From: Eubacteriales bacterium
GTDB lineage: Bacteria > Bacillota > Clostridia > Lachnospirales > Lachnospiraceae
DNA length: 64,000 bases
Assembly: GCA_030527665.1 (NCBI GenBank)
Contig: JAUNAK010000003.1
Location: 10,942 to 74,941, forward strand
Reading direction: 5' to 3'
The first letter of the stretch is position 1. Every line of letters begins with the position of its first letter. This document shows, one piece after another, positions 4,512-14,068 of the stretch. The translations under genes were made by a program, and so were the position numbers. The notes beneath the pieces are model-generated. The model searched no databases. It was given only the letters and a program-made list of their open reading frames with translations, and had not been told where the DNA came from.

Positions 4512-5624
4512 TTATTCTTCATACTCCCGAATCATAATAACACGGGCATTGTCATTCGTATAATGCTCCGGATAGATCGTCATCTCCATCCCCGGTTCCA
4601 GTCCTTCCAGCTTCGCGGTATAGGTGATACCTCCCAGATACATATTATCTGCCGTCAGCTTATAAAAGATACGAATTGCAGGAAGAGTCTCCCCGCTGAT
4701 ATTGGTGATGGTGATTCCATCTTCTTCAGCCGCTGCTGCCGTAACCTTCTCGCCAAGCATGCCCGCATCGCCGTAAGCGACCGTTACCGCACCGGGATAT
4801 ACCATGGTATCGGCATAGGCTGCCTGATTTTTCTCCAGAACAACTACGCTCTCACCAGCCGGAATCGCCGATGCTTCAAACTGCCAGGCTGCCCCGTCTG
4901 CGATCACTTCAAACTGTACCAGACTGATCAGACGATCTCCGGTATTCTCTATGATTGCAGCAGGCACATTGCTGCATTCTGTATCCAGCATCTGTTCGAT
5001 ATAGATACCTTCATACGGCCGGATTCCTTTCAGCCGCAGCGGTGTGTTTCCAAGCATGCCGTCATATTCCGACGCCTGCATAGAAGCTGTATCTTCTTCG
5101 CTTTCCACAGCCGGATTCTCCGGACTTCCATAGACCGGAAACTGCTCCAGGTCCACTTCATCCATATTGGCTGTTCCATCTGCACTTCTTCCGGTCTGTA
5201 CAGTATTACTGCTGCCGCTTTGCTCCGCTGCATCATCGGTCTCATTTACAGGAGGTGTACTGCTGTCCGGCTTCTGTTCTTCCTGCAGTACGGCAGTTTC
5301 ATCCGTTTTCTCCTGGTCCGATGGCTCGGAAGTTACCCTGATTCCAGTTTCTTCATCCGCGCCGCCAATACTCGTGGAAGAAGTCTCCCCCTTTTCCTGC
5401 TGCAAGGTCTGCTCTGCGGGCGTCTGCACAGCAATGCTGCTGTCTGCGGCAGTATCGATTGTCTGTTTCTCTGCCTCCTGTGCGGGTCTGCCGGCTGCAA
5501 GCTTTACTGCAGCGACAGCGATCACCAGAAGCACAAGAACAAGCACTGCAATTCCAACCGGGGTTTTGACCCATGCCTTGATTTTTTCCATACCTTCCGG
5601 ATTCTGTTCCTTCTTATTGCTCAT
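4512..5624 (-). CDS. Membrane-anchored hypothetical protein (N-terminal TM, acidic linker, C-terminal beta-rich domain)
   Basis: Hydrophobic stretch PVGIAVLVLVLLVIAVAAV, then an E/T/S/D-rich linker and a globular C-terminus; starts 9 nt after the rSAM stop with an AAGGAG RBS. Confidence 0.8.
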   Translation of the reverse strand: MSNKKEQNPEGMEKIKAWVKTPVGIAVLVLVLLVIAVAAVKLAAGRPAQEAEKQTIDTAADSSIAVQTPAEQTLQQEKGETSSTSIGGADEETGIRVTSEPSDQEKTDETAVLQEEQKPDSSTPPVNETDDAAEQSGSSNTVQTGRSADGTANMDEVDLEQFPVYGSPENPAVESEEDTASMQASEYDGMLGNTPLRLKGIRPYEGIYIEQMLDTECSNVPAAIIENTGDRLISLVQFEVIADGAAWQFEASAIPAGESVVVLEKNQAAYADTMVYPGAVTVAYGDAGMLGEKVTAAAAEEDGITITNISGETLPAIRIFYKLTADNMYLGGITYTAKLEGLEPGMEMTIYPEHYTNDNARVIMIREYEE

Positions 5625-5633
5625 GTTTTCTCC

Positions 5634-6794
5634 TTACTCCATCGTTCCGGTATATCCGGACTTTCCTTCTTCCATCTCTTCCAGAACCTGCCTGCACGCA
5701 TCTGTATAGCATTCCGTCATCCGGCATCGGTACAGCGGTTCCTTTTCATAATCCCCGCTCTCGGCAAGCACCATCGCCGCACAGACCCCGCATTTCTTCC
5801 TTGATGCACAGGATGTACATTTTGCAGGCATACGGATTGCAGCCGTTCTCTGTACGATCGTTTTCCATGCACCGGCAAAACCCGTTTCAATAATATCTGC
5901 AGACGGCTGATCCAGCATACCGCAGGAAAGCATCTTTCCTTCCCATGTGACCCAAAAGGAGGATTTTCCCGCATGACAGCGAATGCCTTCCCGCTCCTCT
6001 GTCGTCTCCGTCGTAAAATCCAGACAGCTGTCCTCTGCCAGCATAGTATCCGTCCGTTTTCGGAATGCTTTCGGTCCCATATTGTACAGCTGGTTCCAGG
6101 CACTGTAGTAAGCTGCTGTTTCCGGTGTGAAACGGTCGTTTCTCCCGATATTTTCTCTTCCCTTACGGATCGGCGGAAACAAGTAGGTAACTGTCTGGAT
6201 ATACAGCTCTTCCTCTGCGGCGATCTTCCGAATAGCATGAAAATCCTCTGCATTATACGGAGTAACGGTATAATTCAGTTTTACTTCGATGCCTTCCCGC
6301 TTTAACAGATGTATTCCGCGCATGACCTGATCAAATCCCTGTGGATTGGCACACAGCCTTGCATACGATGCGTTGGAGGCTCCATACAGGGTAATGTTGA
6401 TGCGGATCGGTGGTCTCTCTTTCAGCCAGCTGATCACCTGCTCATCGATCAGCGTACCGTTGCTGTTGATCGTGAGTACAAATCCCATGTCATGCAGTTC
6501 TTCATAGATCTCCCGGAAATCCGGCCGCAGAAAAGGTTCTCCGCCGGTCAGAAGCAGGAACAGCAGCCCTTGTTCCCGGGCCTCTCTTCCGATACGGATC
6601 CACTCCCCGGCAGGCAGAAGATCCCGTCCCATTTCTTCCCGCGTCTTTCGTACATAGCACATTCTACAGTTCATATTGCACATCGGAGTCAGTTCAAACG
6701 TGCCTCCGATCGGAATCTGCAGACGATCCGCTTTTTGATACAGATAGGTATTAAGTCCGGGAAGTTGATACTGTACATTCATCCGCTGTCCCAT
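5634..6794 (-). CDS. Radical SAM/SPASM-domain protein, putative peptide maturase
   Basis: CNMNCRMC (CxxxCxxC), LTGGEPFL and a 7-Cys SPASM pattern (CHAG...SC...CTSC...CGVC...C). An alternative start lies at 6782. Confidence 0.92.
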   Translation of the reverse strand: MGQRMNVQYQLPGLNTYLYQKADRLQIPIGGTFELTPMCNMNCRMCYVRKTREEMGRDLLPAGEWIRIGREAREQGLLFLLLTGGEPFLRPDFREIYEELHDMGFVLTINSNGTLIDEQVISWLKERPPIRINITLYGASNASYARLCANPQGFDQVMRGIHLLKREGIEVKLNYTVTPYNAEDFHAIRKIAAEEELYIQTVTYLFPPIRKGRENIGRNDRFTPETAAYYSAWNQLYNMGPKAFRKRTDTMLAEDSCLDFTTETTEEREGIRCHAGKSSFWVTWEGKMLSCGMLDQPSADIIETGFAGAWKTIVQRTAAIRMPAKCTSCASRKKCGVCAAMVLAESGDYEKEPLYRCRMTECYTDACRQVLEEMEEGKSGYTGTME

Positions 6795-7665
6795 CCTCCT
6801 TCATTTTTTCCTTCAGACACTGCACCGCCTGTTCATCCGGTGTACAGGCCAGCAGATATACCGGAATGTCCCCCGCAAGCGTAATCAGTTCCTGCAGGAT
6901 CCTTTCCTGCAGCTCACGGATCCAGGAATAGACAAACGTCTCACTGAGCATTCGTTTAAAAGCTTCTGTCACATCCAGACGCCGGATCCGGCATTCCTTC
7001 GCCTGCTCCAGAAATACAATTGCCTGTATGGACGCCGAATCATTCCGATAGATTCCGGATGTCCCTGCGTAAGGCAGACCGTACGCCTTCCAGTCTCCGG
7101 CAATTCTGCGCACGCCGGTTCTGTCACCATTGATGATGGTCCATCCCTGCAGTTTTTCCCAAAGCTCTGCCTGCGTACTCTTTCCGGCACCGCTGCGTCC
7201 GGAAAACAGAATTGCCCGGTTTCCTTTACAGATGCATGCGCTGTGCATAATAAAGGCACGCTTCAGATTCAGGATCATGGTCAGTTCCATATGTGTAAAC
7301 AGCCCTAGCGCCGATTCCAGATTGATCTCCGTTCCGATTCCTCTGCACAGCAGCTGAACAGGCCCCGTTCCTTCCTCTGCACGCAGATTGGTCTGCAGAC
7401 AGAAATACGGCTCTCTGCCCACATTGACCCGCTCATATTTCATAAGCGTACTGCCCGTCAGATAATACTGCGATGGCTGATTTTCAAATATTTTATATTC
7501 CTCCGAGGGCCTGTCATCGATCACATCGACCAGTGTCCAGTGTACGATGAAATCCGCCTCCCGGTTATTTTCCTCTTCAAAATCCGCAAAACGCTCCCCG
7601 GATCTCCATGCAAAGGGAGCCTCGATCTCTATGATATAATCGGCGATCCGATATTTTTTATTCAT
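6751..7665 (-). CDS. HPr-kinase-like P-loop protein, putative peptide kinase
   Basis: MHSA...AILFSGRSGAGKSTQ Walker A motif followed by IINGDR, a layout typical of HprK-related/ScmC-like proteins. Its 3' end overlaps the rSAM start; start chosen at MNKKY (alternative 7677). Confidence 0.75.
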   Translation of the reverse strand: MNKKYRIADYIIEIEAPFAWRSGERFADFEEENNREADFIVHWTLVDVIDDRPSEEYKIFENQPSQYYLTGSTLMKYERVNVGREPYFCLQTNLRAEEGTGPVQLLCRGIGTEINLESALGLFTHMELTMILNLKRAFIMHSACICKGNRAILFSGRSGAGKSTQAELWEKLQGWTIINGDRTGVRRIAGDWKAYGLPYAGTSGIYRNDSASIQAIVFLEQAKECRIRRLDVTEAFKRMLSETFVYSWIRELQERILQELITLAGDIPVYLLACTPDEQAVQCLKEKMKEDGTADECTVSTSRT

Positions 7666-7692
7666 ATATTCTCTCATACATAGGTTTTTATG

Positions 7693-7846
7693 CCAAAAAC
7701 TTGTGCAGCTGCAGCGCACTTGCTGCCCGGCAGTATCATCCAAAGTTCCTATTCCAAAATCGTGTACGCCTGCCGCGCACCCGCTGACCCGGCAGCATCA
7801 CCCATGGTTCCTGTTCCCAAATCCTGTGCGCCTGCCGCACACCTGC
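7693..7846. repeat. Imperfect ~62-bp tandem repeat, about 2.5 copies
   Basis: Matching motifs recur at 7693/7754/7816, CCCGGCAG at 7726/7788 and GTTCCT at 7745/7807. Confidence 0.8.
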
Positions 7847-7890
7847 AGCTCGATTCGTATTACGAATACTGCCGCCTATGACAGAACATA

Positions 7891-7910
7891 GCCGGGTCAA
7901 AAGACCCGGC
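7891..7910 (-). terminator. GC-rich stem-loop downstream of the precursor-like peptide gene
   Basis: GCCGGGTC-AAAA-GACCCGGC about 25 nt after the peptide stop. There is no clear U-tract, so it may be a stabiliser or partial terminator. Confidence 0.55.
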
Positions 7911-7934
7911 CATACTCTGATACCTATCCTGTTC

Positions 7935-8210
7935 TCAGGATGTGAACACCTGTACATTATCTCCGCCTGAGTTGTAGCACCAGATGCCGACGGAATTGGC
8001 ATCCTCGACATAGGCATCTCCACAGGCATCCTGGTTACTGTAAGCAATAACAGCACCGTTATCCATCCAGGCACAGCTGTATGGATCTCCCTGTGCGGGT
8101 CCTCCCATACTGCCGCCGCCATTTGAACCTGCACCGCATGCTCCGGCAATGTTTGCCGATAAAGAATACTGCTCAAAATAGACGGCAGGCTTCAGATATT
8201 TCTTCTTCAT
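7935..8210 (-). CDS. 91-aa putative RiPP precursor peptide
   Basis: Strong RBS (GGAAAGGAG). Leader MKKKYLKPAVYFEQYSLSANIAGAC, Gly-rich acidic core with Cys25/46/63/78, C-terminus VQVFTS. Lies in an operon with RRE, kinase-like and rSAM genes. Confidence 0.75.
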   Translation of the reverse strand: MKKKYLKPAVYFEQYSLSANIAGACGAGSNGGGSMGGPAQGDPYSCAWMDNGAVIAYSNQDACGDAYVEDANSVGIWCYNSGGDNVQVFTS

Positions 8211-8225
8211 TTTCTATCTCCTTTC

Positions 8226-11200
8226 CTACCGTGTAAATACTCTTGTGAATGCACTGACAACGCGTGCTGTCCACTCTTTCAGAATCTCTGAATTTCTTTT
8301 GGTCGTGTTATTCTGAATGATAACATCAACAGAGTCTGCGGAAATCGTAGTTCCCTCTACATGTGAATCGGCATCCGGTTCCGTCTGACTGAATGTTGCT
8401 GCATAATCCAGTGTATTGTAACCGGTATTCAGCAGCTGCTCTTTCTGTGCTTCCGTCACACCTGTTACACGAATTTCTGTAATAGCCAGAAGATTATTGC
8501 CCTCATTCTGAATAACCACATGTCCGTCTGATGTCGGTGTGATCGGATAATACAATTCAGCTGTGGAAGTAACGTCGATCGACTTTGTACCCCAGTCGTT
8601 GGTAACCTTTACCCGGGTACTCTTTCCTTCCGGTGCTTTCAATCCGATGAATACATGATTGCTTGTATTGGAATATCCGGCAATCGTAAATGCAATGCAG
8701 TTCGGGTTGGAGAGATAAACCTCATTTTTCGGACCATCTTTCTCATAAACAGATGCATCCGCTGTAGTATACGGTACATTATCCAGATATACCACTCCGT
8801 TTCCGGAAGCCGATTCTTCATCAACATCTCCGACGTTCGGATCATTGAATACATCCAGTGATCCATCGCTGTTGATACTGCTCAGAAGTACATCACGGAC
8901 ATTTGCATAGGCATATTCATTTTCAAATGCCTGATTATACGCGTCATATGCAACTGCGCTGTCCGGATTCTCCTTGTCATCTACATCGATCGGATTATGA
9001 ATACGAATGCCATCCAGATAATATGTCGTTTTTTCTCCCTTTGTATTCGGGAACACCTTCAGTTTTACTTTATACTCTGCATGCTCATCCATTACAAAAC
9101 TGAGTGTCGGAACCACATACAGTCCATCACCGGCTCTGTCATACATATTATCCACATACAGAATCTTTTTCAGTGTTTCTGAATCGTCATCATTCTTCAT
9201 GTAGATTCTTGCATAAATTTTGGGAGAAGAAGTATCTGTCTTGGTGAAGATTTCTACACCGGTTCCCTTGAAGGTAAACTCTGCTTCGGCACCGTTTTCC
9301 ATTGCAGTTGCTCCGTCGTCACTGAATCCCTTCTGATCTTCATAAGATGCATCATAGCCGTATACCGTATTTTCACTGGACTGTACTTCATTTGATATAA
9401 TTTCATTTGCAGAATAATCTCCGCTGTATTTGATTACCGTTTTTCCATTCGCAGAACTGAAATTATCCTCATAGTAAACACTGGTTGCCGGAAGAATCGT
9501 TACTTTTGCAATATTCTCTGCATTACCTTCCGCAGCACTGTTTCCGACAACATACTGCAGAGTATCTACCTGGTCCATAAAGGTATTGGGAGTATATCTG
9601 ATCTTGGTTCCTGCTTCTATTGCTGCCGTTCCACAGGAAAGTCCAAGATCCTGTGCAGCAAACGGATCATCCGAAATATCAACTTCCGCACCGTCACTGC
9701 TTATTTCAGACTTATACTCGCGGATTCCGCCGATACGCGGATTGGTTTCATTCAGAATATCATTTTTCAGAACATCGATATCCACCGGTCTTCCATAATC
9801 AAGAACGACCAGATCATCATGCGCTTCGGAAACCACTTCGTTCTTACATACATAACGATACGACGGAGCAGCTGCTCCCTTTGTTACAGCTGTTGCCTTT
9901 GCGATCTCCAGTTCCGGGCTCTGGTGTCCGTTCTTGTTGATCGTATTGCTTCCCAGTCCAACGGCTTCCCAGGAAGTTACCGACTGCGGCTCCTGACTCT
10001 CTACAAAATATACGTAGTCCGGATCCGTGTCATCATACAGATCCTTCTCAATATAGAAGCTGACACGCTGATCACCTTTCATACTGAATTTGCCGTCTGC
10101 ACTTGTTGTTCCGGTTTTTACCAGTTTGTTATTACTGTTATATACATAATATGCAGTTCCGGCAAAAGGCTCAGCAGATGTATTCTTTCCGGATTTTTTG
10201 TATGCAGTAAACTCAAATTCCAGATCATTCAGCTTATTCTTAAGTTCCGTGTCCGATTCAGAAACCGTATTGGTAACTGCTTTTGTCAGACTTACTACCC
10301 TTTTCTGCGGAAGGTTGAATTTGATCCGGCAGTTGGACAGATTGCCGCCTCGCTCCAGGTAAAATACCTGCAGAGTATGCGGCGTCGTGGAACTTCTCCA
10401 TTCCGTATCACTGGTTCCCAGAGTTGTCCACAGATTCTGCTCGTCTGCATAATTGCGATTTCCCCATCTGTAGGTAATATCTCCGGTCGCAAAGTTAACC
10501 GCTCCCTGTACAGCATCATGAATTCCACCGATGTCAAGTACCAGTTTTCCATCGATGAATACCCATACATCATCATCGCCGGTAAATTCAAAGCTGATCG
10601 GCTGACCATTCTCGTCTCCGTTGATCTTACCATTCTCCGTCATGAAGAACTCTGTAGAAAAGGTCATGCCGAAATGGATGTTGCTTTTTCGGTTTTCACT
10701 ATAACTGTTTCTTGGATAAAACGGGAAAAAGCCGTATCCGTTTCTGCTGCTTCCTGTCAAAGTAGCATTGGAACTTGGGTAACGATTCTGAAAGTGTACA
10801 TCATAGGTTGCTGAATTCAGCTCATAATATCCGGTACGACTGTTGTACTGAAACGGAACCTGCACATTGGTGTATGTATATTTTCCATTGGCACTTGTCG
10901 TTGGATCCAGAATACCAATATTGTCATATTTGATATTGATATTACCGTTTGCATCCAGCGTATCTTCTGCAATACCAAACGTAGGACTTCCGCCGTTGCC
11001 TGTCCAACGGTTGTAGGCATAGTTATTATCCTGACCATTATTGAAGAAAAAGGTTCCCCTCGCATTGGTCTGGGATCTATTGATGTTCGTTGTGTCATAG
11101 TCGAACATATTTACCGAAAAATACGCCGTCTTATCATCAGCGGCCTGCAGCATGGATTCGTTTTCTGCCGTCTCCTCCAGTGTGTCATCTGCCGCTGCCG

Positions 11201-11279
11201 TTACACCGGTGCCCAGCAAAGTCGTACACATCATGGCGAGGGCCAGAGAAAGCGAAAGTATTTTTTTCCTCTTTATCAT
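8226..11279 (-). CDS. Secreted fibro-slime (PA14-related) domain surface protein with Ig-like modules
   Basis: Signal peptide; fibro-slime signature FEFTGDDDVWVFIDGKLVLDIGGIH and QVFYLERG; VDIDVLKND cadherin/Ig-like module; amphipathic C-terminal tail. Start chosen at ATG 11279 (GTG at 11285 also possible). Confidence 0.82.
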   Translation of the reverse strand: MIKRKKILSLSLALAMMCTTLLGTGVTAAADDTLEETAENESMLQAADDKTAYFSVNMFDYDTTNINRSQTNARGTFFFNNGQDNNYAYNRWTGNGGSPTFGIAEDTLDANGNINIKYDNIGILDPTTSANGKYTYTNVQVPFQYNSRTGYYELNSATYDVHFQNRYPSSNATLTGSSRNGYGFFPFYPRNSYSENRKSNIHFGMTFSTEFFMTENGKINGDENGQPISFEFTGDDDVWVFIDGKLVLDIGGIHDAVQGAVNFATGDITYRWGNRNYADEQNLWTTLGTSDTEWRSSTTPHTLQVFYLERGGNLSNCRIKFNLPQKRVVSLTKAVTNTVSESDTELKNKLNDLEFEFTAYKKSGKNTSAEPFAGTAYYVYNSNNKLVKTGTTSADGKFSMKGDQRVSFYIEKDLYDDTDPDYVYFVESQEPQSVTSWEAVGLGSNTINKNGHQSPELEIAKATAVTKGAAAPSYRYVCKNEVVSEAHDDLVVLDYGRPVDIDVLKNDILNETNPRIGGIREYKSEISSDGAEVDISDDPFAAQDLGLSCGTAAIEAGTKIRYTPNTFMDQVDTLQYVVGNSAAEGNAENIAKVTILPATSVYYEDNFSSANGKTVIKYSGDYSANEIISNEVQSSENTVYGYDASYEDQKGFSDDGATAMENGAEAEFTFKGTGVEIFTKTDTSSPKIYARIYMKNDDDSETLKKILYVDNMYDRAGDGLYVVPTLSFVMDEHAEYKVKLKVFPNTKGEKTTYYLDGIRIHNPIDVDDKENPDSAVAYDAYNQAFENEYAYANVRDVLLSSINSDGSLDVFNDPNVGDVDEESASGNGVVYLDNVPYTTADASVYEKDGPKNEVYLSNPNCIAFTIAGYSNTSNHVFIGLKAPEGKSTRVKVTNDWGTKSIDVTSTAELYYPITPTSDGHVVIQNEGNNLLAITEIRVTGVTEAQKEQLLNTGYNTLDYAATFSQTEPDADSHVEGTTISADSVDVIIQNNTTKRNSEILKEWTARVVSAFTRVFTR

Positions 11280-11333
11280 ATCCACCTCTTTCTAACCTTT
11301 CTGAAAAAAGGTCGTAATACATGCATTTTCTTC

Positions 11334-11409: not shown

Positions 11410-13794
11410 TCAGCCCAGTAATTCCTGTTTCTTTCCCATAAAAACAGCCTTTGTTCTGCTGCTGACTCCGAGTTTTTTATATAGATGCTGCAGATGCGTT
11501 TTAACCGTGGAAATCTCGAGACTGTGTTTCTCTGCGATCTGTTTATTGCTGAGTCCTTCCTCCAGATCCGCCAGCAGCAGCTTTTCCGTTGGGGTCAGCC
11601 GCTCCTTGTTCTGAACGGCAGCCATACTGTTCTGTTTCATCTGCCTGCCGGATTTTCGTATCAGGATCCGCAGATATTCCGTCTCCGGTGCCTGCAGAAT
11701 ATTCGAGTAATGATAGGACTTCCTTTTTACATGCGGCTGCTCCTGCTGTTTCTGTGAATCCAGATATGCATGCAGCAGCTCGCTTCCCGTCTCATCATAT
11801 TCCGTATAGAAGCGTCCGTACCGAAAGCGATCGGAAATGGCAAAGGACTGTGCCGTCTCCCGCAGTGCCGATGCATATTGTTTTTTCTGGTGATGCACGA
11901 TTGCCTGCATAAACAGGATCTCTGCGATGATCCGTGAGGAATCCATTTTCTCCGCTTCCGGCCGGATCCTGTCCAGGATCTGTTCAGCAGCTGCATATTG
12001 TTTTTCCCGAAGCAGCAGACGTGTGTATGCAAACAGCGGGTAAAATTCTCCTTCCACGCTCCACTTTGCCAGATTGTTTCCAAATACTTCCCTGAGTTCG
12101 GTATGATATTTCTGACGCTTTATCGGTCCCGCAAATGCAGCTTTGGCCAGTATAAAACGAAGACGTGTCTGCTCATTCTCCTGCATGAGCCTCTCTCCCT
12201 GCTTCTCCCGATCTTTTTCCGCTGCATGTTCTTCCGTAAAACCAAGCTGTCCGTTTATTTTTGCAAGTACCGGTACATACTGCTCCGGCATTTCAGCCGC
12301 ATATTCCTGCAGCCGTTCCCGGTGTTCCTGCGTAATCTCTTTTTCACGAAACGTTTCTGCCAGATACTCCGCTCTGGCAAATTCCAGATATGCCTGTTCC
12401 TTCCTTTCCAGACATTTCTTCCATATTCGGGTATAGCGATTCTGTTCTCTGCGCAGATCGGCAAAAACAAAAGCCATATCCCGCAGCCCCCACAGGCAGG
12501 ACACACTGCTGCCGACCGGGTGATACAGCCGGCACTTCTGTTCATCACTAAAGGATTCCTCCAACAGCCTGAACCAGTCTTTACCGGACATCCAGGGAGA
12601 AGCAAACTGCAGATTGCAGACGGCTTCCCGGGCTTCCGTCTGCTTCATCTTCTGCAGTTTCTGAATACAGGTCTGCAATGCTTTTTGATTTTTCTGCTGT
12701 ACTGCCAGCATTCCCTTCAGATAGAGAAGACGATGATCGGCGCCCTTTTCCTCCCATTTTCCGGCCTTTCGATAATTCAATGAAAGAAACGGGATCTCCG
12801 TATAATGCCGCAGACAGAATGCCTTCCATTCCTTTCCCCCCAGCTTTTCCCAAAGCTTTCCTGCTTCCTGCAGATTCTCCTGTTCTTCATACAGGCGGGC
12901 AATCATTTGCCTCATCTCGTCCGCTTTCTCCGGCTCCCGGGCAGGGCGGAAGATCTCCCAAACGAAAAATTTCTCCTGCTGCCGCCGGCGATAGAAGATC
13001 CCTTTCCGTTCCAGATCTTCACCGGCATCCATACGATTCTCCGAGCTGCAGATCTTCTCTAATGCATACGGAAGAATACCGTCTGCAAGGGACGCAAGCT
13101 GTACACAATATTTCTCATCTTCACTTAAAGATCCCAGTATCTCTTCCTGCAGCAGTACCTGCATCTCATAACCTGTCAGAAGTCCGGAAACAGAAATTTC
13201 CTGCTCCTGTCCCCGGGTTTTCTCCAGCACAGGCAGAAGTGCTGCGATTCCCGGCCAGCCGCCGCTCTTTGCATACACGGTTTTGCTGCTTAAACGACTG
13301 TTCATTTCTTTCAGAAACGAACGCAGTTCCTTCTCTGTAAACGCAAGCATCGGCTGGGTGATCATTCCCATCTCTCCGTGCCACAGCAGTTCCAGAAGCA
13401 GATGATCCGGTTTTTCTCTGCCAGCAAGCAGAATATGATTCTCCTTTGGCAGCCGCCCGATCGTATCACAGATCCTTTTCCGCAGCTTCTCCGGAAGAAG
13501 CATGGAATAATTATCCAAAAACAGACAGCAGCCGGTCCTGTCTTCCGCATCTGTCCCCTGCACCAACATTTCCGCCAGTACCTCCGGAAGCCTTTCCCGG
13601 TCATTTTCCCTCTGCAGATCCAGTTCTTCTGTTCGGAAATTCGCATCTGCCGCCTGCCGAAGAAACATCCGCGCGGCAGTCGTTTTGCCGCAGCAGGCAG
13701 CTCCCTCTAAATAAATAGAAGGAAATCTTTCGATTTCCTTCTGAATAATACTTCCTCTATCCACTTGTAACCGACTGGTCTCAGTCATTTTCAT
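11410..13794 (-). CDS. MalT-like (STAND/LAL) LuxR-family transcriptional regulator
   Basis: N-terminal Walker-A-like GAACCGKTT and SGGWPG motif; C-terminal LuxR HTH LTPTE...GLSNKQIA...STVKTHLQHLYKKLGV. Confidence 0.88.
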   Translation of the reverse strand: MKMTETSRLQVDRGSIIQKEIERFPSIYLEGAACCGKTTAARMFLRQAADANFRTEELDLQRENDRERLPEVLAEMLVQGTDAEDRTGCCLFLDNYSMLLPEKLRKRICDTIGRLPKENHILLAGREKPDHLLLELLWHGEMGMITQPMLAFTEKELRSFLKEMNSRLSSKTVYAKSGGWPGIAALLPVLEKTRGQEQEISVSGLLTGYEMQVLLQEEILGSLSEDEKYCVQLASLADGILPYALEKICSSENRMDAGEDLERKGIFYRRRQQEKFFVWEIFRPAREPEKADEMRQMIARLYEEQENLQEAGKLWEKLGGKEWKAFCLRHYTEIPFLSLNYRKAGKWEEKGADHRLLYLKGMLAVQQKNQKALQTCIQKLQKMKQTEAREAVCNLQFASPWMSGKDWFRLLEESFSDEQKCRLYHPVGSSVSCLWGLRDMAFVFADLRREQNRYTRIWKKCLERKEQAYLEFARAEYLAETFREKEITQEHRERLQEYAAEMPEQYVPVLAKINGQLGFTEEHAAEKDREKQGERLMQENEQTRLRFILAKAAFAGPIKRQKYHTELREVFGNNLAKWSVEGEFYPLFAYTRLLLREKQYAAAEQILDRIRPEAEKMDSSRIIAEILFMQAIVHHQKKQYASALRETAQSFAISDRFRYGRFYTEYDETGSELLHAYLDSQKQQEQPHVKRKSYHYSNILQAPETEYLRILIRKSGRQMKQNSMAAVQNKERLTPTEKLLLADLEEGLSNKQIAEKHSLEISTVKTHLQHLYKKLGVSSRTKAVFMGKKQELLG

Positions 13795-14068
13795 CGGTAT
13801 CTTCCTTTATCAATACATGGTTTGCATCCAGCTTCTCAATGAATGCAAGAATATCTTCTCTGGCAACAGCTTCTTCTACTTCATATTCTTCAAGTACCGC
13901 CCGGATCATCTCATCCATGTCGGTTCCCTTCTGCAGGAGCTTCCACAGCAATACACCGATCTCATTCAATGTGATCAGCCCGTTGAAATCCAATACGGTT
14001 CTTCCGGTCGGAATCACAATATATTCGCCTGCAATCTCTCTTATTATAAAATCATTTTTGATTTTCAT
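13781..14068 (-). CDS. Stand-alone PqqD-family RiPP recognition element (RRE)
   Basis: 95 aa: FIIREIAGEYIVIP...LITLNEIGVLLWKLL...LEEYEVEEAVAREDILAFIEKL. Its stop overlaps the regulator start by 14 nt. Confidence 0.9.
   Translation of the reverse strand: MKIKNDFIIREIAGEYIVIPTGRTVLDFNGLITLNEIGVLLWKLLQKGTDMDEMIRAVLEEYEVEEAVAREDILAFIEKLDANHVLIKEDTDEND

Follow-up and report, generated by a model that had tools for sequence, protein, structure and literature searches.

In the window, i.e. the whole stretch of 64,000 nucleotides analysed here, a gene for an HprK-like P-loop phosphotransferase lies in a cassette with genes for a precursor-type peptide, a radical SAM/SPASM (rSAM) enzyme and a stand-alone PqqD protein. 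The best reading of the kinase, which the comparative analysis makes moderately probable, is that it phosphorylates the C-terminal Ser91 of the neighbouring peptide. It would be one of two enzymes of a peptide-maturation cassette, in which the PqqD protein would hold the 91-aa precursor by its invariant YxxP leader, and the four conserved Cys would be the target of the rSAM enzyme. The kinase would transfer one or more ATP-derived phosphates to the side-chain hydroxyl of Ser91, with the use of Lys162, His141 and Asp181. We infer substrate, site, phosphate donor, number of phosphates, timing with respect to the rSAM reaction and fate of the product alike. The features of the region are the following.

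4512 to 5624, minus strand: membrane-anchored protein of 370 aa (p370), found in 54 of 80 related loci
5634 to 6794, minus strand: radical SAM/SPASM enzyme (Pfam Radical_SAM, 4.6e-27; broad SPASM-family matches)
6751 to 7665, minus strand: HprK/PEPCK-fold P-loop phosphotransferase of 304 aa, an open reading frame with a start backed by homology
7666 to 7934, minus strand: structured spacer between peptide and kinase genes, with a hairpin of 17 bp (7882-7919) and ~60-nt direct repeats (7726-7846)
7935 to 8210, minus strand: precursor-type peptide of 91 aa, with YxxP leader (Y5 to P8), Cys 25, 46, 63 and 78, and C-terminal F89-T-S91
7938 to 7940, minus strand: codon of Ser91, the last before the stop and the proposed phosphorylation site
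8226 to 11285, minus strand: secreted 1019-aa protein with a fibro-slime domain (TIGR02148, 1.1e-14), directly upstream of the peptide
11410 to 13794, minus strand: MalT/LuxR-type regulator (GerE, 6.3e-14; MalT, 1.8e-20)
13781 to 14068, minus strand: stand-alone PqqD-type RiPP recognition element (RRE; Pfam PqqD, 1.4e-17), presumed from its sequence to bind the YxxP leader

The open reading frame of the kinase gene spans 6751-7743 (minus strand); homology favours initiation from the ATG at 7665, the alignments of relatives beginning at MNKKYRIADY. A beta-rich N-terminal domain (about residues 1-135) is followed by the C-terminal P-loop domain. With a Pfam release that predates PF27840, no match was obtained for the protein at E <= 0.01, hence none to Hpr_kinase_C (PF07475). 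A single-sequence search of the PDB returned zinc-finger matches, which were rejected as spurious and caused by a GREPYFC stretch, and a profile search against PDB sequences gave weak PEPCK and P-loop matches only, so that a comparison of folds was needed. With the AF2 model (pLDDT 92.4, pTM 0.90), the top 50 Foldseek matches were exclusively PEPCKs (ATP-PEPCK) and HprK/P (probability 1.0, E 2e-6 to 2e-5), the best full-length ones being PEPCKs. By its predicted fold and its collinear His, Walker A and Asp, the protein belongs to the PEPCK/HprK-like P-loop superfamily, together with HprK/P and ATP-dependent PEP carboxykinase, from which it differs by its N-terminal domain, its gene context and the missing Hpr_kinase_C match. 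The same genome encodes a bona fide HprK/P elsewhere (Hpr_kinase_C, 2.9e-71), to which homology was detectable by profile-profile comparison (hhalign, E 5.8e-5) and by fold only. We collected 1137 homologues of the kinase, and the precomputed tag PF27840 was present on all 120 listed, the window's own protein included. Matches to the family profile were found in 540 species-representative genomes, and the wider superfamily had matches in 38% of the sampled Clostridia set.

The earlier note had read from the letters an HxA, a Walker A motif and a GDR in place of DD. These are confirmed by the translation of 7123-7245 (minus strand), HSACICKGNRAILFSGRSGAGKSTQAELWEKLQGWTIINGD, which holds H-S-A, the Walker A motif GRSGAGKST and N-G-D-R, located as follows.

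7243 to 7245, minus strand: codon of His141, counterpart of the catalytic His in HprK/P and lasso-tailoring kinases (hhalign to the genome's own HprK/P)
7174 to 7200, minus strand: Walker A, G156-RSGAGKS-T164, including Lys162, with positions invariant across kinase clades
7120 to 7131, minus strand: N179-G180-D181-R182, the position of DD, where the first Asp is replaced by Gly and a clade-specific Arg follows

Among 93 homologues, H141, G161, K162, T164, Q165, N179, G180 and D181 were invariant, and every kinase clade examined kept G159, G161, K162 and T164, as well as H141 and D181. Where the genome's own HprK/P reads TDD, Gly180 aligned with the first Asp and Asp181 with the second. The motif is thus His141-Lys162-Gly180-Asp181, and not the His-Lys-Asp-Asp of lasso-tailoring kinases, each residue of which is reported to be essential; a D158A/D159A double mutant of the pseudomycoidin kinase PsmK is inactive. 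In the rSAM-linked clade, Gly180 was present in 82/82 sequences and Arg182 in 79/82, whereas the sister clade devoid of rSAM has D180 and S/T182 instead. These clade groupings come from a tree rooted on HprK/P, whose outgroup branch measures about 5 substitutions per site and whose root position was not used. G-D was also found in short kinases encoded beside PqqD and/or an S24/S26-type peptidase (L093, L095 and L099), and in a natural RRE-kinase fusion from a genome of the same family (L103), so that the Gly is not limited to the rSAM-linked clade. The change of Asp180 to Gly, with Arg182 beside the catalytic Asp, may make room for the carboxylate that is left free when Ser is the very last residue, a point to which we give low weight.

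The genetic context is widely conserved too. The stop codon of the kinase gene (6751-6753) lies inside the rSAM open reading frame, whose start is the ATG at 6794 or 6782, and the resulting overlap of 32-44 nt bears out the linkage of the two genes proposed in the earlier note. The rSAM gene adjoined the kinase gene in 73/80 related loci and, in a class-wide sample, the kinase was within 1.5 kb of an rSAM orthologue in 14/15 loci. The survey of 80 loci, which looked for counterparts of the cassette genes of the window, gave rSAM, PqqD, p370 and fibro-slime as recurrent neighbours among Lachnospiraceae, Oscillospiraceae and Peptostreptococcaceae, the arrangement being fibro-slime, peptide, kinase, rSAM, p370, PqqD. 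One carrier, with locus L015, is the cultured Intestinibacter bartlettii DSM 16795. The cassette is conserved across gut and rumen Clostridia. A fibro-slime homologue was upstream of the peptide in 63/80 loci, and PqqD, which has weak matches to the GeoRSP and lasso PqqD models, was present in 49/80, mostly right after the p370 gene. The MalT/LuxR regulator (5/80 loci) separates PqqD from the other cassette genes in the window's lineage only. In p370, the C-terminal ~185 aa are conserved and form two beta-sandwich (FN3/Ig-like) domains in the AF2 model (pLDDT 93.4), for which Foldseek gave weak matches to tandem beta-sandwich proteins only; judging from this model, p370 is probably not an enzyme. 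Since the other conserved proteins of the cassette look non-enzymatic, two enzymes are left for two conserved features of the peptide. The cassette of the window contains no lasso cyclase (Asn-synthetase-like) or B1/B2 leader peptidase, and no protease or peptidase, exporter or nucleotidyltransferase (NTP-transferase) was found in it.

More distant clusters were studied by searching the regions around kinase matches with our own HMM and regular expressions for peptides. In the sister clusters lacking rSAM, the peptides have a YxxP leader and no Cys; Ser was terminal in 7/17 of them and present among the last five residues in about 15/17. Cys therefore tracks the rSAM enzyme, and Ser the kinase. 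In distant rSAM-linked clusters with short peptides, 4/5 of the peptides were Ser-terminated, and one ended in LPCR. LPP-like clusters (LPP being the linear, multiply phosphorylated peptide family of Bacillota), in which a kinase accompanies PqqD and/or an S24/S26-type peptidase, were matched by the kinase-family profile at E about 1e-35; they belong to sister clades. In G015 (L104), the sole rSAM cassette without a kinase, the peptide open reading frame runs at its 3' end into a serine-recombinase gene that overlaps it; this locus is probably truncated, and unfit as a control.

This context bears on whether the protein is a peptide Ser kinase at all. It could instead be a nucleotide-dependent scaffold or chaperone of the rSAM/RRE complex, or its substrate could lie elsewhere, among small molecules, sugars or the surface proteins encoded alongside. 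H-K-G-D has lost the first Asp of an essential pair, and the best full-length structural matches are to PEPCKs, enzymes that act on small molecules. ScmC-type proteins, which have no known function, point the same way, as does a 242-aa paralogue in the same genome, encoded inside a diol-dehydratase operon without peptide or RRE, which indicates that the fold also serves outside RiPP contexts. However, invariant His141, Lys162, Thr164 and Asp181 are unexpected in a non-catalytic protein, the kinase strictly co-occurs with a leader-bearing peptide and an RRE, and G-D is shared with the short kinases and the fusion mentioned above. Against surface proteins as substrates, in particular, those of the cassette reside outside the cytoplasm, and the kinase lacks a signal peptide. 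We thus consider a role other than peptide phosphorylation rather unlikely.

The peptide, for its part, points to the terminal residue. Its gene has a strong ribosome-binding site and its product ends in QVFTS-stop, in agreement with the terminal Ser reported in the earlier note; the spacer that separates it from the kinase gene has a fold z-score of -4.5, and its repeat is unique in this genome. Over 69 peptides of the family, conservation was 100% for Y5 and P8, 97% for C25, 99% for C63, 100% for C78, 96% for F89 and 97% for S91. The invariant Y5 and P8 make up, by sequence, a YxxP leader as in LPP peptides. A C-terminal Ser, as in the substrates of lasso-tailoring kinases, was found in 63/69 peptides (59/69 with an exact F-x-Ser end), and five more had a single additional residue beyond it, against a background of ~6%. 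Orthologues are thus not often paired with peptides lacking the terminal Ser, a pairing that, by the earlier note, would have refuted the proposal. Apart from this Ser, no hydroxyl position of the peptide exceeds 65% conservation, the value of the next-best one.

Another Ser of the same peptide might nevertheless be the target, close to where leader and core meet (S16 or S18), the terminal one being kept, for example, for recognition by the rSAM enzyme or a surface protein. There is a precedent in LppK, which modifies Ser3 of the core right after the leader cleavage site (PMC13381572), and the junction often reads L-S-Q-S-I-A in cassette peptides. Yet it is poorly conserved (position 18, Ser 48% and Ser/Thr 65%; position 20, Ser 32%) by comparison with S91, so that a target at the junction appears very unlikely.

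Comparison with characterised systems supports phosphorylation of Ser91. The statement, made when the kinase was first noticed, that an HPr-kinase homologue of paeninodin type acts on the C-terminal Ser of its precursor agrees with the literature: PadeK and ThcoK do so on linear precursors, as does PsmK. The kinase has the same HprK-like P-loop fold as these three, including the catalytic residues His, Lys and Asp, and its cassette resembles their context, namely a linear leader-bearing precursor, a conserved C-terminal Ser and a kinase gene beside a discrete PqqD-type RRE. In contrast to theirs, the cassette lacks a lasso cyclase and a B2 protease and has a radical SAM/SPASM partner, and the kinase has H-K-G-D for H-K-D-D and an additional N-terminal beta domain of ~135 aa. 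The precursor is about 90 aa long, with four Cys and a YxxP leader, whereas paeninodin-type leaders are typically WxxP. LppK, too, is an HprK-like kinase; its RiPP cluster is not of the lasso type and has a discrete RRE and a leader with YxxP. It phosphorylates Ser3 of the core, just past the leader cleavage site (Popov et al., Nat Commun 2026, PMC13381572), unlike the C-terminal target proposed here. The cassette is not an LPP cluster, the RRE being the sole common gene, and peptidase, NTP-transferase and exporter being absent.

Genes for an HprK-related protein also stand beside PqqD-like and rSAM/SPASM genes in curated NCBIfam cassettes, SynChlorMet (ScmC/D/E/F) and GeoRSP (with HprK-related kinase B). 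ScmC and HprK-related kinases A/B were the only curated families matched by the kinase and its clade relatives, all below cut-off: the kinase scored 16.9 to 22.7 bits versus cut-offs of 125 to 200 (ScmC TIGR04249, 16.9 vs 125; HprK-related kinase A TIGR04352, 22.7 vs 200; HprK-related kinase B TIGR04355, 17.5 vs 200). We take these families to come from other phyla, and know of no demonstrated activity or function for them. The "new combination" of modifications claimed in the earlier note was therefore overstated as regards gene content, but it stands in that no experimental characterisation of HprK-like plus rSAM/SPASM plus PqqD cassettes was found in the searched literature, nor any paper on this kinase family or on this pairing of a peptide kinase with rSAM.

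Taken together, phosphorylation of Ser91 is favoured by the fold and the conserved catalytic residues, by the tight and widespread synteny with peptide, rSAM and PqqD and the RRE-kinase fusion, by the near-invariant terminal F-x-Ser and the Ser-rich tails kept without rSAM, and by the characterised relatives (PadeK/ThcoK, PsmK, LppK), which phosphorylate Ser on leader-bearing precursors. Counted against it are H-K-G-D in the place of a motif found essential, with the inactive PsmK double mutant, the core Ser3 target of LppK, the 5/69 peptides extended past Ser and the distant one ending in LPCR, scores far under the curated cut-offs, and a cassette without protease, exporter or nucleotidyltransferase.

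As to the fate of the phosphate, ThcoK, PsmK and LppK put several phosphates on one Ser, and in pseudomycoidin and LPP clusters a nucleotidyltransferase decorates the phospho-Ser. A Ser91 phosphate that is only transient, either a leaving or activating group (e.g. elimination to a C-terminal dehydroalanine, then an amide) or a consumed handle, so that the mature product is phosphate-free, would fit the absence of that nucleotidyltransferase and the example of class III/IV lanthipeptide synthetases, which phosphorylate Ser/Thr and then eliminate the phosphate, but is highly improbable given that the conserved genes of the cassette include none resembling a lyase, and that the mono- to tetra-phosphates made by characterised HprK-like RiPP kinases are stable. 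Returning to a lasting phosphorylation of Ser91, one may speculate that the product is an rSAM cross-linked peptide of ~70 residues whose C-terminal Ser (poly)phosphate is a handle coupling it, covalently or not, to the fibro-slime protein, the membrane-anchored beta-sandwich protein or an envelope polymer. It would, in that case, form an integral part of the clostridial cell surface and not be a free antibiotic, H-K-G-D and Arg182 being a variant specialised for a carboxylate-bearing terminal Ser; we regard this whole scenario as quite unlikely.

As far as is known, it is only through HprK-like kinases that Ser of lasso and LPP peptides becomes (poly)phosphorylated. If our reading is true, this clade extends their Ser phosphorylation chemistry to radical-SAM-modified peptides, and its H-K-G-D with the adjoining Arg is a test of which "essential" residues of H-K-D-D are truly required. 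The abundance of the cassette among gut and rumen bacteria, its lack of protease and exporter genes and its association with large secreted proteins suggest that the product may be a component of the cell surface or matrix rather than a bacteriocin.

The reading frame of the HprK-like kinase runs on the minus strand from a TTG at 7743 to 6751. Its homologues align from the ATG at 7665 (MNKKYRIADY...), so that the best gene model is 6751-7665, encoding 304 aa. The earlier note had described in this protein an H-x-A motif, a Walker A loop and G-D-R, together with a translational link to the radical SAM/SPASM (rSAM) gene and a neighbouring peptide with a terminal Ser. This was confirmed in all details. 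The motifs are all present in the translation of 7123-7245, and the kinase stop codon (6751-6753) lies within the rSAM reading frame, giving an overlap of 32-44 nt according to whether rSAM starts at ATG 6794 or 6782. The 91-aa peptide, whose gene lies upstream of a spacer and has a strong ribosome-binding site, ends in QVFTS before its stop codon.

Features of the window
4512-5624, minus strand: p370, a 370-aa protein with a single N-terminal membrane anchor, a low-complexity linker and a conserved C-terminal region of about 185 aa
7123-7245, minus strand: kinase motif region, translated as HSACICKGNRAILFSGRSGAGKSTQAELWEKLQGWTIINGD, holding H-x-A, the Walker A loop and G-D-R
7666-7934, minus strand: structured spacer between peptide and kinase genes, 269 nt, fold z-score -4.5
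7726-7846, minus strand: two to three direct repeats of about 60 nt in the spacer, present nowhere else in the genome
7882-7919, minus strand: 17-bp hairpin in the spacer, after the peptide stop codon, without a U-tract
11410-14068, minus strand: genes for the PqqD-type RiPP recognition element (RRE) and a 794-aa MalT/LuxR-type regulator

The kinase had no match in Pfam, and its NCBIfam matches were all sub-threshold: HprK-related kinase A (22.7 bits for a cut-off of 200), kinase B and ScmC. A large protein collection contained 1137 homologues, and all those among the matches listed carried the precomputed tag PF27840. The AlphaFold model (93 homologues) reached a pLDDT of 92.4 and a pTM of 0.90, and its top 50 PDB matches were all ATP- or GTP-dependent PEP carboxykinases or HPr kinase/phosphorylases, with probability 1.0. 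A genuine HprK/P is encoded in the same genome (match 2.9e-71). Profile comparison with it aligned His141 of the kinase with the catalytic His, Lys162 with the Walker A Lys and Gly180-Asp181 with the ‘DD’ pair; no substitution occurs among the 93 homologues at H141, G161, K162, T164, Q165, N179, G180 or D181. The genome also encodes a second HprK-like protein, a 242-aa paralogue with an ‘NDD’ motif (L084:8258-8986, minus strand, i.e. about 23257-23985 of contig C129 in genome G000). Its gene is part of a diol-dehydratase/reactivase operon, where the adjoining genes encode a PduO-type adenosyltransferase and a PHP phosphatase. Neither PqqD nor peptide was found in its neighbourhood, so that use of the HprK-like fold extends beyond peptide substrates. 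The paralogue may phosphorylate a small molecule in B12 or 1,2-propanediol metabolism.

When one genome per species was scanned, 540 kinase loci emerged. Neighbourhoods were compared in the best 80 of these, all of them clostridial (Lachnospiraceae, Oscillospiraceae, Peptostreptococcaceae and others). The recurrent order was secreted fibro-slime protein (63 loci), peptide, kinase (80), rSAM/SPASM (73), p370 (54) and PqqD (49). PqqD lies directly 3′ of the p370 gene in most relatives. In the window it lies 6 kb upstream, separated by the fibro-slime gene and the MalT/LuxR-type regulator, which was found in only 5 of the 80 loci. The conserved C-terminal half of p370 was confidently modelled as two beta-sandwich domains, with weak FN3/Ig-like matches and weak similarity to the IL-17 receptor, factor XIII barrels and the biofilm scaffold RbmA. 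Structure comparison of the modelled 185 or so residues revealed no catalytic fold, and p370 is unlikely to be an enzyme. This would leave rSAM and the kinase as the two enzymes of the cassette, together with a leader-binding protein and two extracytoplasmic ones; neither a protease nor an exporter is present. The spacer may set the peptide-to-enzyme ratio, either by stabilising the mRNA or by attenuation.

With an HMM trained on the initial set of peptides, 69 were detected in the window and in 66 of the 80 loci. Frequent pairing with peptides lacking a terminal Ser, which the earlier note had held to speak against phosphorylation at this site, was not observed: 63 of 69 end in Ser, against a background of 6% for long ORFs of the same loci, and 59 have an exact F-x-Ser end. 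Invariant or nearly invariant columns comprise Y5, K7, P8, E13 and F15 in the leader, four Cys (C25, C46, C63, C78), and Y79, F89 and S91 at the C-terminus. S91 is 97% conserved, every other Ser/Thr position in the alignment being at most 65%.

We then compared sister clades. Among 399 evenly sampled genomes of the class, a profile search gave kinase-superfamily matches in 153, and an rSAM orthologue in just 13 (15 loci). In 14 of these 15 loci a kinase lay within 1.5 kb.

Loci compared
L104:8013-11483 (genome G015, contig C32): gene content of the sole rSAM-orthologue locus without kinase in the class-wide sample
L105-L143, e.g. L112:6887-7978, L124:3309-4461 and L128:2776-4355: clade (i) loci

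In the G015 locus the peptide ORF overlaps at its 3′ end with a serine-recombinase gene, and relaxase- and ParB-like genes come next; a mobile element has probably truncated this cassette. Clade (i) consists of kinases of about 290 aa with an ‘NDD’ motif, usually near a PqqD gene and without rSAM. Their peptides (53-65 aa) are Cys-free, with the same YxKP...ENIAA leader as the cassette peptides, Ser/Thr-rich tails and conserved P-K-T-[IV]-Y-K or [IV]-Y-T-x-x-S-I-S motifs; Ser is terminal in 7 of 17 and within the last five residues in about 15. The L112 cluster, the one viewed closely, adjoins secreted and SLH-type proteins and capsule chain-length genes. Clade (ii) kinases (about 240 aa) in some cases adjoin PqqD and/or an S24/S26-type peptidase, the layout of the linear, multiply phosphorylated peptide (LPP) family described in 2026. 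Group (iii) is a natural RRE-kinase fusion of 386 aa with an ‘NGD’ motif (L103:6307-7488, minus strand; G233, same family as the window genome). Its cluster is LPP-like: the peptide has 127 aa and a YTKP leader, and further genes encode a second PqqD, a peptidase of S24/S26 type (SpI-like), an ABC exporter and an NTP-transferase-like protein. Distant rSAM-linked clusters encode short Cys-rich peptides, 4 of 5 with a terminal Ser. Since the sister peptides lacking rSAM have no Cys and keep Ser, Cys tracks rSAM, and Ser at or near the C-terminus tracks the kinase. This pattern, the strongest evidence in our analysis, suggests from sequence comparison that the kinase reads the terminal Ser.

Characterised relatives phosphorylate Ser. 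Linear lasso precursors are the substrates of PadeK and ThcoK, which can attach up to four phosphates to the hydroxyl of a conserved Ser at the C-terminus, and PsmK catalyses the same reaction. LppK belongs to a non-lasso cluster in which the RRE is discrete and the leader carries YxxP; it places between one and four phosphates on Ser3 of the core peptide (PMC13381572), which shows that the target Ser need not be C-terminal. The kinase studied here would carry out chemistry of this type, an ATP-dependent, leader-guided transfer of phosphate to the precursor Ser. (Poly)phosphorylation of Ser91, the site proposed in the earlier note, is the best explanation, to which we give somewhat better than even chances. 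The evidence supports the note's interpretation in part: it is favoured by the conserved terminal Ser and its tracking with the kinase, but the catalytic motif is altered. In lasso-tailoring kinases all four His-Lys-Asp-Asp residues are reported essential, and the D158A/D159A mutant of PsmK is inactive, whereas the first Asp is Gly in 82/82 kinases of the rSAM-linked clade. The kinase studied here cannot therefore be assigned to the lasso-kinase family. This leaves room for another metal arrangement, another donor or a non-catalytic role. G-D is not confined to this clade, as it also occurs in some short kinases adjoining PqqD and/or an S24/S26-type peptidase and in the RRE-kinase fusion. The clade further has Gln165 in 82/82 (His elsewhere) and Arg182 in 79/82 (Ser/Thr in the NDD clade). 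An attractive reading of these sequences is that, with a negative charge lost and Arg182 gained beside the catalytic Asp, the active site would be well matched to a strictly terminal Ser and its free carboxylate. Two caveats concern the proposed site: one residue follows F-x-Ser in 5 of the 69 peptides, and LppK modifies Ser3.

The earlier note expected a new combination of modifications. At the genomic level the combination is not new: NCBIfam has models for HprK-related proteins encoded next to PqqD and rSAM/SPASM, as SynChlorMet and GeoRSP, systems that reportedly originate in the literature with Haft and Basu in 2011; our literature search found no paper on this kinase clade or on any RiPP combining rSAM and an HprK-like kinase. 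These kinases form a very widespread, uncharacterised RiPP HprK-like clade whose catalytic motif is altered and whose partner is a radical SAM enzyme.
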